The notes under the pieces are model-generated. The model had not been told where the DNA came from. It worked only from the letters and a program-made list of their open reading frames with translations, and did not search any database. Below, in pieces: positions 5,665 through 56,411 of a DNA stretch of 64,000 bases. The stretch lies in the NCBI GenBank assembly GCA_964016885.1, contig OZ024742.1, forward strand, positions 55,304,001 through 55,368,000, in the 5' to 3' direction. The translations under genes and the position numbers were made by a program. The first letter of the stretch is position 1; the number at the start of each line of letters is the position of its first letter. Source of the DNA: Eledone cirrhosa (Eukaryota).

Positions 5665-5818
5665 GATGAATATAAGTCAGTAGAGTGCTCAACCGAAGGA
5701 GCCAAATAGTAATAATAATAAAATTGAAGACTAAAATCAAAAGCGGGCTCGATAAGGAAAATATATATCAAATATATAAGAACCGTAGAGCAAATATTTA
5801 TTAAAATAATAGATTAAA

Positions 5819-5867
5819 GTTTAAGCAAAGAATCGCTGCTCTCACCCTTAACGGGATCTTCTGAAAC
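5819..5867 (-). ncRNA. Type I hammerhead-like motif (family A, 5' pLTR; GAAA mutated to GAGA)
   Basis: Same fold as 3156-3204, with stem III GCA/TGC. Confidence 0.55.
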
Positions 5868-6181
5868 TAACAAAGTCAATCTGTAAACGCAGAACTGGAT
5901 ATTTCAAAAAACATTGCAACCGGAGGAAGACAGGAAGACGATACTTTGGTTCGTGGTAACGTTCGCTGGCAAAGAACGGGAAAAAACGAATAATACGTCA
6001 TTAAAAGGAGCGGTGAAAAACAATTACGCGCAAAGACGCTCCTATTAATGACGTATTATTCGTTTTTTCCCGTTCTTTGCCAGCGAACGTTACCACGAAC
6101 CAAAGAATCGTCTTCCTGTCTTCCTCCGGTTGCAATGTTTTTTGAAATATCCAGTTCTGCGTTTACAGATTGACTTTGTTA

Positions 6182-6230
6182 GTTTCAGAAGATCGCGTTA
6201 AGGGTGAAAGCAGCGATTCTTTGCTTAAAC
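6182..6230 (+). ncRNA. Type I hammerhead-like motif (family A, inverted pLTR)
   Basis: GTTT CAGAAGA tcgcgttaagggt GAAA GCA gcgattctt TGC TT AAAC. Confidence 0.6.
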
Positions 6231-51471: not shown

Positions 51472-53425
51472 AGTAATAATAATAAATTTGAAAACTCAAA
51501 TCCAAAGAGGGCTCCATAAGGATAAATATCTATCAAATATATAAGAACCTTAGAGCAAATATTTATTAAAATAACAGATTATAGCTTAAGCAAAGTATCG
51601 CTGCTTTCACCCTTAACGGGATCTTCTGAAACTAACAAAGTCAATCTGTGAACGCAGAAGTGAATATTTCAAAAAAGGTTGCAACCGGAGGAAGACAGGA
51701 AGACGATACTTTGGTTCGTGGAAACGTTCCCTGGCAAAGAACGAGAAAAAACGAATATAATACGTCATTATTTGGAGCGGTGAAAAACAATTACACGTAA
51801 AGACAAAACCACGTTTATGGTATAAAAGAAGTCGTAGACTAATATTCTATTAGGTGGTTCATAGAGATGTTCTCTGGCAATGAACGGAAAAACGAAGATA
51901 ATACGTCATATGTGGAGCGGGGAGAAAAAATGCACGCAAAGACATAACAACGTAAATGGCATAACTGAAGTCGTAGACTAAAATTCTAACTAGGAAACCG
52001 AATGATTCTGAGCTTCAGAGTTAAGAATAAAGTAAATAAAATACAGAGGTAATTGAAATTAAATAAATACATACACGCATCCATATACGTACATACACAA
52101 GCATACGCGAAAACACTCGCCATAGGTATACAAATACACGCACATACACAAATAAAAAAACCAGCACGCACATACAGAACCCACGCAACGTCTGTACCCG
52201 GACGCATACGAATGTATACACCAAATACACATAAAATTATATATAAAAATATATATATTAATATATAAATATGCGTGTATGTGTGTGTGTGGGTGTATAC
52301 ATATAATTAAATAAACGTATATAACGAGCGCGCACACATACCTACATGTAAATACACTTATGTTCGGAGACGTACGTCAACCAAAACACGAAGTGCACAT
52401 ATACACACACCCTACATACGTACGAACCCGCATACTCACACAGACACAAAACTCACGTATACGCATAACCAAAAGCATATGTACCAGAATATATAATATA
52501 TAAGCCATAACACATACAATCAAATATACGTACGAGGAAGTAAACGTATCTTCACAAAATATACAGGTAATATATACTTACCTATACAAATAAGTAATTG
52601 TTTAAACATAACATATACTTAGCTACCACATGAAGACGTAAAATATCCGCGTATAGTTCGTACTATCTGTTAGGGTATAATGTGGGTCTGTAATACAGGA
52701 AAGTTTTGTGAAATTTATGTTTACAAGCCGAAATTGCCTCAGATTCTTTTTTTAAGATGTTGTCTTTGGCGTAGAATATTTCCTGAGCCTCAGCGGCACA
52801 GAGGTCACATGGTCTTTTATTTCCGTTATACGATCTAGCCCTAACTAGGATCTCCCTGTGTAACTTATATTGGGTATGGTTGTCTTTTAGACTCCAGATA
52901 TAAGCTGAAAGTGACGTCATATTCCTTCTTAAAGGGTAACGAAAAGAATGGGTATGCATGTAAAGACGCTGCTTGAATATATTGTCGGTTAACCCTGTGT
53001 AGGCCCTACGGGACGTGGGTGTTTCAACCTTACATTTGTAGACAATGTTACTGGAGAGGCATTTCCCGGATAGGGGGCACTCAACCTGATTCCTACAATT
53101 ACAGTTAGTACTAACTACAGGGTTGCACGTGTTCCTACGGCTAGGTAGTTTAGTTAAATTTGAAGCCGTGATGTTATGTGCAAGGTTAGGAGTCGTAGAG
53201 TAAGACATTTTAATAGTATTTCTATTAAAAATGTTACTATATTTATGTGTAAGGGGAAAATGCTTCATAATAAGGGAGAGAAAGATCTTAGCTAATGGGG
53301 AAAATGCTTAATAATAAGGGAGAGAAAGATCTTAGCGAATGTTGTGGCCACCTCCATATTATATGGTGGGTTATACCATATAATGCGTCGGGATCTATTT
53401 CTTCTAGGTCTATTCTCGTACTCTG
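51472..53425 (-). mobile_element. 5'-truncated second copy of PLE family A retaining the full endonuclease and 3' UTR
   Basis: Same 3' end as 3046; HHR-like motif at 51584-51632; short duplication about 53255-53337. Confidence 0.92.
52663..53268 (-). pseudogene. PLE linker plus GIY-YIG endonuclease (family A)
   Basis: CNCRNQVECPL, IVY..YTG, FKQRLYMH, CDLC, SACKH. Confidence 0.9.
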
Positions 53426-56084
53426 TATATATGTGAATGTGCGTGCGGGAAAATAAACGGGTACCCCATTTTTTTTTGCTTAATTATACTAACTAACTAC
53501 ACCCTTACTATCAACTAATAATTCCTGAGTTCTCTGAATGCGTAGCCATATTTATTGAACATAGTTTCTGGAGGAGTCAACAATACATCGTTAATTAGCA
53601 GATCAACAACAGGTCACAAATAGGAAAATTAATTTATGATTCCATGTTAAAAGCTTCAAATACGTCAGGAGTGCTGGTGGTAATTAAATGAAATCCCAAA
53701 CGACAATCACACGCATTAGGTGAATGTTAGCTATTATAATTATAAAAAGAACGTGAATCGAATTTTCCCTGGTACACTCTATAGCCCGTCGTTTTATAAG
53801 GAGATACTTTAATAGCCCTTCACTGAGAGTATCCGTTGCAGTTAATAATAAATGTTATACAAATCTGATTTCCTAATTCATTAGCGTGTGACAAATGGAA
53901 GAATGTAAATCATTTTAGGCAGGGTTTACTTTATTGAAACGGGGAAAAGATACTTCAATTTCACACTTAATAAAACTTTTCACTGTTTCTATTAATTTGA
54001 GAAATCTGCTATTCATTTTTTTTCTTTTTTACGATAAAGAGAGAGTGAGAATTTCAGCTAAATTTGTACCACCCATCTCTACTCCAATGTCTCTAAAAGC
54101 AGAGCGCCTGTTAATACCCCACATGTTAGGCTGGATTATATTTCGGCTGAACATTACACGCACACACACACACACACTAACACACGCACACCCATTAACA
54201 CACACACAATCTGTCAGTAGCTGTGTGAGAAAATCAGACATGTTTTTCTGGATTTTCATCTGTCATCGGAGACAAGTGTGAAACATCGGTTGGGGCTGAA
54301 CATTTGCATATAGTGCCAGATAAAGCGGCTAGGATTAATAAGCAGTAGCACTAACATAACGTGTGTTGTCATGATGTTTCATATACAAAGAATACACTAG
54401 CTGCGTGTTATTGTCTGAGTAAAGTATGTAAACGTCATTAAATATCGGATTAAAACAGAAACACATTCTTCCATGGCGACTGAGGTAACTGTGACATGTT
54501 CACGGCTAACATATTCATAGCGAGATTCATGTATATTTATTATACAGAAACTTATCTTATAATTTCATATAAATTTCTATTAACACACCCCTACATACAT
54601 ATGTATATTTGCGCATACAATTTCACATACACACACACACACACACACACACACACACATTATGCGAAAAGTAAACGGAAATATAAAAAGAACAATACAG
54701 TAAAATGAAGAAATAAAGTAAGAAAGGTATCTTAGCGTTTAGGATCCAAGTCCTTTAGAAGACAGAATTAGAAAAGAAAAAGAATAGAAAGATAGAGAGT
54801 AAAAGTAAGAAACAGAAAAAAATGTTTTGTGCAGAAAGAGCACGTGTGTGTTCAGTGAGCCATTTCGAGTAATAGTGGTCAGTGTGTATCTTTTAGGCAG
54901 GTTTTAAAATGGAGATAATCCTTCAATATCCTGATGTTTGTTTGTTTCATTTCCTGTGCATAGATGTGCATGGATGTGCGTTGAAATGAATCCAAGCGAG
55001 CTGCTGTGAAAGTGTGGCGATGTGAGTGCGCATGAACTTGTGACCTGACTAACGCATGAGGGTATACACATGTTTGTGAAATTCTATATACAATTTCATT
55101 GACAAATACACAAACGTAGAAAGAGTCACAGGGGGTGATAGAGAAAGGTTGGTGGTGTAAATAAATGACAAGATTGAGAGACTACGCTGAGAACAGCGTC
55201 ATCGGTTAGTATTCATATGTATTGTAAAATTATGTTATAACAAAATGGAGCTATTGCTGTTGTTTCCTGTCTCAAGTGGGCGTGCATCGTAAATTTCCGT
55301 CTGCTTTTGAAATGGCTATGCTTTGCAGAGATTTTATTTTATTGTAACAATGGATCTGTTAACATACGCCTCAAGGGCATCTGCTATCTTTTCTTTGAAA
55401 TAACGTGTTTGGATATTTGATAATTCAGCATGTATACATGATATAAGAGATGGTTATAGTGTCGACAACAACATATTTAAAATATCATCCATTCAATGTC
55501 CATAAGCACCAATGAAATATATGTTTTTCTTTCCTCTTAAAAACATATAGTGTTGAATTTACGTTTTATGAAACGTGATTCAAAGCTTCTACACAAGAAG
55601 ATACGACATTTCTTTATCACGAACAACCTACATAATTGCCTTACTCGCTAAATACCGGTAGTCAGAAATATTTAAGGAAATTCTATTGAGAAAGTTTCAT
55701 GTCATCGTGATTATTCATGTGGAAATGATAATAGTGAATCTATTGCAATAGATTTCAACCTGAAATCTACACGTGGCCATACACTGTATGGTACATGTGG
55801 CCGTCTTTGAAGTGCATTTCAACTCGTTTAGGATTACGTATTCACTTTAAGTTGTTTTCTCTCATGCACAAATGAAATAAGTTCCTGTCCTTTTCCAAAG
55901 TTTTCCTATTTTGGGATTAGCTTAACATTCTACTGCTTAATATGCTAAAGAAAGTTGGACTATAATTACACATCTGTATCTAGTGTTCTTTTATAAACAT
56001 GTAGGCCATTGAATCTAGGAGACATTCATCACACACACACACACATATATATATATTTTTCTGATTTTATCCAGTTTATCCAAA

Positions 56085-56205
56085 ATCTCTGAAGAAGTGA
56101 CAACTGATTATACATTTGCTATCGAATACTTGCTAACATTATATGATTACGCAAGCAGCGATACATAGGTGTTCGGTCTGTTACAGAAACATATGTCAAT
56201 ACCTG
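56085..56205 (+). ncRNA. Atypical hammerhead-like motif with 90-nt stem II domain and poor stem I (family C, 5' pLTR)
   Basis: CTGAAGA-aGTGACA ACTGA..TCGGT c TGTTACa-GAAA-CATATG-TC; flanks atct/aata do not pair. Confidence 0.6.
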
Positions 56206-56411
56206 ATAAATTCCTTTTTTACCAAAAGCACTTTCATTTTATATTCATCCTTTCTACATTTCTCCGGAATATAATTTATACTCGTTGAGCAAACCTGCAC
56301 GTACGCTGTTCATCTCTAACGTAACGATATATTATCACTACATTATTGATAACCTGAAATTTTATTAATCTCCTATACAGTTGAGCAACTAATTCAGCAT
56401 ACGCTTCTAAA

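Follow-up and report, generated by a model that had tools for sequence, protein, structure and literature searches.

Twin bulged hairpins stand in fixed register with both ends of Hydra-clade Penelope-like elements and of non-coding hammerhead repeats

We analysed a 64,000-nt stretch of the Eledone cirrhosa genome (assembly GCA_964016885.1, contig OZ024742.1, positions 55,304,001 to 55,368,000; hereafter the window), which carries three families, A, B and C, of Hydra-clade Penelope-like elements (PLEs). An initial annotation had drawn attention to a conserved motif, CTCCT followed after a few nucleotides by GTTGAGC, shortly upstream of the ATG in all three, and had proposed that it serves either the translation of an uncapped, ribozyme-cleaved RNA or recognition by the reverse transcriptase (RT) at the monomer junction. 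The motif is present at all three sites: the pattern CTCCT-N(2–7)-GTTGAGC has exactly three matches in the window, at 5687–5701 (−), 23321–23337 (−) and 56370–56386 (+), and none in 100 dinucleotide shuffles of it. The first ATG follows after 22 nt (A), 21 nt (B) and 25 nt (C), with a Hydra-type open reading frame (ORF) at each site. We conclude that the motif is the short-armed form of HP2, the downstream member of a pair of hairpins, whose upstream member, HP1, lies 89–106 nt upstream of the motif in these families. The annotation had reported no other similarity between the untranslated regions (UTRs), a statement that the second hairpin overturns.

Family A lies on the minus strand. Its HP2 (5687–5702) has a GCUC/GAGC stem, a C-G upper pair and a UU bulge and precedes an ORF for RT and GIY-YIG endonuclease (EN) at 3818–5664, which has a frameshift near 5311–5326; farther upstream lie HP1 (5747–5791; long upper arm, UC bulge) and the 5′ hammerhead-like core (5840–5863), called, like all cores reported here, by pattern only. 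The 3′ pseudo-long terminal repeat (pLTR; 3043–3374), with a core at 3177–3200 and a copy of HP1 at 3084–3128, ends 5 nt before the HP2 register and runs into (TA)n. An inverted arm on the plus strand (6037–6255) ends at the HP1 register (−93), again in (TA)n, and a second 3′ fragment of the family (51470–52143, −) ends at the HP2 register. In the family A core an A replaces a conserved U: 31 of 32 copies (L101–L130 among them) read CAGAAGA and one reads CAGATGA, with the variant core at 5840–5863, 3177–3200 and 51605–51628 (−) in the window. The family is recently amplified, and its core may be inactive or a variant.

Family B, also on the minus strand, comprises HP2 (23321–23338), HP1 (23411–23430; ACUC/GAGU in relatives, with GAAU in this copy), a 5′ core (23494–23533), a frameshifted ORF (21070–23299) and a 3′ pLTR end (19339–19565) that stops at the HP1 register, into (TA)n. 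Family C, on the plus strand, has its 5′ core at 56089–56190, HP1 at 56261–56290 (outer pair a U.C mismatch), HP2 at 56369–56386 and an ORF of 655 amino acids (aa) at 56412–58379 that contains RWK, DKT and CxCX5C and stops before the GIY-YIG core; its 3′ pLTR (59176–59378) ends at the HP1 register, into (TA)n. The cores of B and C have the form CUGANGA...GAAA and carry no Rfam score. That of C, repeated in the pLTR at 59208–59309 (+), has about 90 nt in stem II and canonical letters in 34 of 34 copies. In all three families the motif lies downstream of the pattern-called 5′ hammerhead and beyond the end of the 3′ pLTR, as annotated.

The assignment to the Hydra clade likewise holds. The RW and DKT columns are conserved in the protein alignment, family C reading IRWK and DKT; a CxCX5C linker ahead of a C-terminal GIY-YIG region was seen by eye in the window ORFs of A, B and C and in the long relatives L096 (intact ORF of 775 aa), L225, L228 and L232; and the elements show the (TA)n insertion and the partial tandem and inverted structure of that clade. 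An AlphaFold model of a relative (P0001, 701 aa; predicted local distance difference test 92) had telomerase reverse transcriptases as its top three Foldseek matches (E 4e-8 to 2e-7), suggesting a telomerase-like fold. Pfam gave no match for any of five proteins, a PDB sequence search returned nothing significant, and a homodimer prediction for residues 1–400 returned no verdict (score 0.00). The clade is large, comprising no fewer than 2,808 protein clusters at E <= 1e-30. On a tree of 18 proteins, all Hydra-like, families A, B and C group in a single supported subclade; row L090 of this tree is labelled from its relative L008.

Genome-wide, the pattern CTCCT-N(2–6)-GTTGAGC has 2,484 matches against 166 for the reversed control (counts for a 3.0-Gb animal genome). 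The first 30 loci, taken without selection, comprise 14 Hydra 5′ UTRs, 10 non-coding repeats of about 0.5 kb (8 distinct arrays), one 2.4-kb non-coding element and five loci with no PLE link. A relaxed pattern that drops the upper-stem rule has 4,640 matches against 139, and among the first 100 matches listed most have a paired upper arm by eye. The annotated distance of 21–25 nt to the ATG, correct for A, B and C, does not extend to the larger set: the start codon follows the motif by 21–58 nt in the coding families and by 28–49 nt in metagenome loci, and the non-coding repeats have no ORF for it to precede. As side observations, many HP1-type matches in the relaxed-pattern list are spaced 570–610 bp apart, pointing to further retrozyme families, and a repeat in L066 that matches no PLE protein, and in which HP1 was not found, carries the motif at 1000 and again 5.1 kb on, at 6078.

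Both hairpins share one build: 5′-RCUC, then an upper arm that one or more pairs close, a bulge of 2 nt and GAGY, often followed by ACU or GCU. The two are spaced 68–184 nt apart in this genome and 57–66 nt apart in metagenome loci. Among 61 hairpins, a set selected in part by pairing rules, the bulge is UU in 49, UC in 7, UA in 4 and CU in 1; the outer pair is G-C in 49, A-U in 7 and mismatched in 5; and the first upper pair is C-G in 43, U-A in 12 and A-U in 6. The second upper pair is Watson–Crick in 32 of 53 hairpins compared with 13.9 when shuffled, and pairing is retained across upper arms of 5 to 65 nt. In HP2, unlike HP1, the first upper pair is C-G in all 35 cases (23 found through the search pattern and 12 of 12 selected by protein). 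The A-U outer pair of HP1 requires four changes on the 18-protein tree, and HP2 of a 635-nt repeat in the window has U-A at this position. In family E, described below, the hairpins have a 1-nt bulge (L241, L248; window 27956–27975, −) and the upper arm of HP2 is about 90 nt long. A scan of Rfam 15 found no covariance-model match at hairpins or hammerheads, only microRNA-like noise on TA repeats. A tRNA D-arm or A box, an HDV-like ribozyme and a splice acceptor were each considered for the motif and dropped, given that there is no GG in the loop, that the arms vary and that AG occurs in family C only.

We mapped the ends of inserted copies by taking, for A, B, C and the non-coding repeat, the 30 best genomic matches to the pLTR or body upstream of the hairpins and recording where similarity stops; copies were thus chosen only by sequence upstream of the hairpins. 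BLAST gave two end classes in each case: −5/−93 in A, −6/−93 in B, −5/−111 in C and −5/−88 in the non-coding repeat. The 38 segments of family A divide into 17 ending at −4 to −6, 17 at −93/−94, two at −60 and two read-through; the 42 of family B into 17 at −6/−7, 19 at −92 to −94, three at −97 to −99, two elsewhere and one running through; and the 34 of family C into 13 at −5, 17 at −111, one elsewhere and three running through. For the non-coding repeat, 15 of 67 segments stop at −5 and 14 at −88, and 25 extend as far as the reference does. Almost all of the ends mapped in this way adjoin (TA)n, and the upstream end of each family lies just 5′ of HP1. Across six families, 165 of 196 exact (TA)n junctions lie at −8 to −4, measured from the initial C of a hairpin, and 161 share 2–5 nt with the (TA)n target, in a count that excludes 125 read-through segments and 21 ends without a TA tract. 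All six families have two discrete genomic ends separated by the one-sided PLE tail, and hairpin spacing and tail length run together (89/88, 92/90, 106/107, 80/80, 76/80 and 68/67 nt). Contigs from two sequencing runs showed no joints or end pile-ups.

Two of these families were mapped after their ends had been predicted. Families D and E came from a distant protein query in this genome, both lack the strict motif, and their ends were fixed beforehand, relative to the ATG, at −190 and −115 (D) and −219 and −152 (E). The ends of D were observed where predicted, at −191 (10 of 31) and −114/−115 (16), with two nearby and three running through. Those of E lie at −221 (16 of 38) and −157/−158 (19), with one elsewhere and two running through; the HP1 end agrees with the prediction, and the HP2 end is taken up below. 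One family E 3′ fragment lies in the window (27915–28047, −), with its core at 28026–28047, HP1, with its 1-nt bulge, at 27956–27975 and its end at the HP2 register.

The two end classes are used in a paired manner. Of 38 simple two-armed inverted insertions, 37 have their arms divided between the two sites (P about 3e-10), a count that leaves out two complex cases and to which family D contributes none within 3 kb; the end classes were drawn from the data, and the inverted loci were not selected for the arm test. Window examples of one arm per site are family A, the 635-nt repeat and an insertion at 59.6–60.5 kb, the last by eye. Two more hammerhead-bearing repeat families (window 11753–12190, 27613–27843, 12262–12696 and 31574–31876) are present as 3′ fragments only, and their inverted arms terminate in tracts of TA or CT/TA.

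Both HP1 and HP2 also occur in non-coding hammerhead repeats. These are tandem units of about 510–635 nt with no PLE protein match and, in most, a CUGANGA core by pattern. In all three repeat units tested, ORFs reach at most 31 aa even across the junction, and the longest ATG ORF is 7–31 aa. The window holds an array of units of about 635 nt (7350–8777, −), with CUGAUGA cores at 8409–8426 and 7774–7791, HP1 at 8684–8719, 8049–8084 and 7415–7449, and a variant HP2, UCUC/GAGA, at 8598–8615 and 7963–7980; the array ends just before a third HP2. Its inverted arm (8773–9281, +; 8086–8572 matches 9281–8773) ends at the HP1 register.

Further non-coding families were noted alongside. A 2.4-kb element (L065:900–3500 and window 59640–60544) with a hammerhead core, both hairpins, internal repeats of about 230 nt and no PLE protein match is a candidate large non-autonomous PLE passenger. 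Its window copy is a two-armed insertion with HP1 at 59734–59793 (−), in which, by eye, one arm ends near the HP2 register and the inverted arm at the HP1 register. The sequence TTTCTAG follows HP2 by 28–32 nt in nine non-coding clusters and by 19 nt in a tenth, and is found in none of 12 coding clusters; carriers are L002, L015, L018, L025, L063, L068, L074, L077 and the window's 635-nt repeat, at 8561–8571 and 7926–7936 (−). It could reflect either shared ancestry or a further signal of the non-coding repeats.

We also searched for the hairpins outside this genome. In 18 metagenome loci selected by N-terminal protein alignment, three pairs of which are near-duplicates, a fixed descriptor applied to the 200 nt before the protein match found two hairpins in 12, one in two and none in four. 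The two single-hairpin loci have, by eye, a 3-nt bulge in HP1, and the four without a hairpin are cut off or lack a 5′ end. Two or more hairpins were found in only 2 of 5,400 shuffles and in none of the 111 downstream windows or 18 antisense strands. RNAalifold recovered HP1 from 11 distinct metagenome loci, with double changes at four of seven pairs, a score that none of 500 shuffles matched. All three metagenome contigs with both element ends stop 4–6 nt before a hairpin, two of them into (TA)n. The stems persist across proteins that are 34–67% identical and across loci of other samples in which flanks and loops cannot be aligned.

Six published Hydra consensus sequences were inspected by eye. 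Coral Hydra-2_Amil and sea-cucumber Hydra-1_Ajap and Hydra-2_Ajap show the hairpin clearly; Hydra-1_Ajap has it twice, with 29 nt between the second copy and the ATG. Hydra-1_Crog and Hydra-1_Obim have imperfect versions, and Hydra-1_Amil, whose 5′ UTR is missing, has none. As a separate observation, Hydra-1_Amil and Hydra-1_Ajap (Craig et al., File S7) have GAGCGAGCAC in common, placed close to the ORF end or a short way past it; it resembles the hairpin 3′ strand without its partner. The strict GTTGAGC occurs 12 times in the Craig et al. supplement, in the passages covered never as this motif, and the relaxed descriptor was not run on other PLE clades. Viral contigs gave no relatives; a loose twin pattern had at least 120 matches there, none of 80 examined had the full architecture, and we took these matches to be chance.

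On the basis of these sequence comparisons, we consider it probable that HP1 and HP2 are RT positioning signals for two-site, two-strand priming, with their spacing setting the PLE tail. The suggestion of RT recognition at the monomer junction thereby gains support, element ends lying 4–8 nt 5′ of the motif in six families, and the twin hairpins would be a likely explanation of the one-sided tail. In this mechanism each hairpin would be an RNA binding site that places the telomerase-like RT to start copying just upstream. The GIY-YIG domain would nick both (TA)n strands, and each 3′-OH would pair with the brief run of U/A that precedes a hairpin. HP1 and HP2 would each position one RT active site, the two priming from opposite target strands, and the outcome would be two divergent arms whose difference in length, the tail, equals the hairpin spacing. 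A cut linear monomer could not template a full copy because both starts would fall within about 200 nt downstream of the hammerhead; the template would therefore have to be a circle or an uncut tandem transcript, or a template jump would be needed. The non-coding repeats would also be copied, since they retain both hairpins. We entertain a more specific version only tentatively, as somewhat less than an even prospect: two distinguishable hairpins would bring two RT active sites onto a single circular RNA, to be copied in step from both nicked (TA)n strands, with primers pairing over 2–5 bases as in telomerase, and the hairpin pair would be a portable minimal signal sufficient for the insertion of any RNA, the PLE counterpart of the telomerase RNA scaffold.

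Several observations weigh against positioning by RNA hairpins. Of the 196 junctions, 31 fall outside −8 to −4, 21 ends have no TA tract, and L228 ends without (TA)n. The HP2 end of family E missed its prediction by 2–5 nt (−157, about −154 on the commoner haplotype, against −152), the pairing of that HP2 having been guessed with a 1-nt bulge. The partial selection of the 61 hairpins by pairing rules makes their covariation partly circular, and since the central C-G, U-A and C-G pairs are invariant in all 61, what is recognized there may be sequence, in DNA as well as RNA. Wobble pairs give little evidence on the strand (G.U 9, A.C 5), and the first upper pair is C.A in one abundant family. 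Short HP2s fold weakly, the upper C-G pair mostly having a probability of 0.35 or less. The CTC/GAG hairpin of the annotation is supported, although at site C the hairpin alone is not predicted to fold (minimum free energy 0, pairing probability 0.29 in copy L014); the second hairpin, the bulged stem with its variable upper arm and the link to the tail had been overlooked. RNAalifold did not predict HP2, and the MAFFT alignment misplaces its 5′ strand in some rows.

The invariant core pairs and weak wobble bias would suit hairpins that act in DNA, as cDNA hairpins or cruciforms recognized by the GIY-YIG EN when it trims or resolves ends. In the sections covered of PMC8557442, Craig et al. explain the tail by resolution through the EN, and the D. 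virilis EN required the tail sequence in DNA (cited in the covered part of PMC11167929). Yet upper arms of 5 to 65 nt vary and stay paired, the bulge is always on the sense 3′ side, the descriptor finds nothing in 18 antisense strands, the 2–5-nt target overlap at the ends is as priming would give, and the two ends of the PLE Poseidon are RT start sites in vitro (PMC11167929, in part); we regard action in DNA as unlikely. Slightly more doubtful still is that the hairpins mark RNA cleavage or termination sites, with reverse transcription then beginning at an RNA 3′ end of the usual kind. A cut site would account equally well for fixed ends located 5′ of a structured element, but 37 of 38 insertions with one end of each kind would require two differently cut RNAs to be paired in every event, no Rfam ribozyme matches, and internal initiation has been shown for Poseidon (covered sections of PMC11167929).

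Translation of an uncapped, ribozyme-cut or circular RNA, the other role first proposed for the motif, accounts for the placement of HP2 21–58 nt before the start codon in coding families and for its constant C-G first upper pair, a feature HP1 does not share. We nevertheless judge it improbable as the main function: HP2 is kept in repeats whose ORFs do not exceed 31 aa, its distance to the ATG varies and that to the element end does not, and HP1, of the same build, lies far from any ATG. The motif is thus not mainly an ATG-linked signal, and translation may be a subsidiary role of HP2. Residual UTR homology, or chance, might be suspected from the grouping of A, B and C in one supported subclade and from the five of the first 30 pattern loci that look unrelated to PLEs. 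We give this very little credence, given stems that persist at 34–67% protein identity among unalignable flanks and loops and in fixed register to the ends; it is refuted by the metagenome descriptor test, the exact junctions and the inverted-arm test.

RT positioning by the twin hairpins would bear on how PLE RTs, the closest relatives of telomerase, choose their template and start sites and on the one-sided tail, for which competing explanations have been offered. A hairpin of 15–80 nt at a fixed register from both ends is directly testable and makes element ends predictable from a single copy. The hairpins also tie non-coding retrozymes to the clade that would mobilize them and, should they prove sufficient, a chosen RNA could be loaded on a compact RT-nuclease of about 700 aa.

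Structured RNAs that recruit and position their own RT include hepadnaviral epsilon, the R2 3′ UTR and the stems of telomerase RNA, and telomerase uses short primer–template pairing. The hairpins described here have no sequence or Rfam relation to these RNAs and occur in two copies, each lying 3′ of its putative start site, with priming proposed on nicked target DNA.

The host elements resemble the Hydra clade as described in the covered sections of PMC8557442, in RWK, DKT, CxCX5C, the C-terminal GIY-YIG and a length of about 3 kb, and also in a hammerhead (here called by pattern) in the pLTR, (TA)n targets, partial tandem and inverted copies and a one-sided tail. That paper gives a tail of 30–40 bp for PLEs in general, whereas the mapped tail here is 67–107 nt and tracks hairpin spacing; the words hairpin and stem-loop are absent from its main text as covered. 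The closest mechanistic parallel is Poseidon PAc from Anolis (Frangieh et al. 2024, PMC11167929, sections covered), in which the two genomic ends coincide with internal start sites of the RT, extension takes place on both target strands and RNA lying 3′ of the start sites is needed. The elements here have a tail between two genomic ends and, by analogy, would share start sites at these ends and priming of both strands. Poseidon PAc belongs to another clade and initiates within the ORF, inside an AC-rich stem-loop, a kind of start not encountered here, where ends lie 5′ of the stems; the same sections describe neither a defined binding motif nor a matching hairpin pair and do not report one arm per site. 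Initiation there is also reported to lack homology to the cut DNA, which counts against the priming proposed here, where 161 of 196 junctions overlap (TA)n by 2–5 nt.

Animal non-LTR retrozymes (Cervera and de la Pena 2020, PMC7229834; preprint 10.64898/2026.07.22.740005; both in part) resemble the non-coding repeats in being tandem hammerhead repeats of a few hundred nucleotides and have been proposed to be moved by PLEs. With their pattern-called cores, the repeats here fit the description of retrozymes as non-coding tandem units that carry a type I hammerhead. Neither text, as covered, contains hairpin or stem-loop, and our analysis adds a cis signal common to retrozymes and the mobilizing PLE. 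Full-text literature searches and the covered text of PMC8557442, PMC7229834, PMC4209133, PMC13282606 and the 2026 retrozyme preprint hold no description of the hairpins; other figures, Repbase notes and subscription papers lay outside this search, and figures S1B and S2C of PMC11167929 and the preprint supplements, also outside it, may bear on novelty. The host family and two-site initiation were already known; what appears to be new is the pair of cis signals, the register they keep and the rule of one arm per site.

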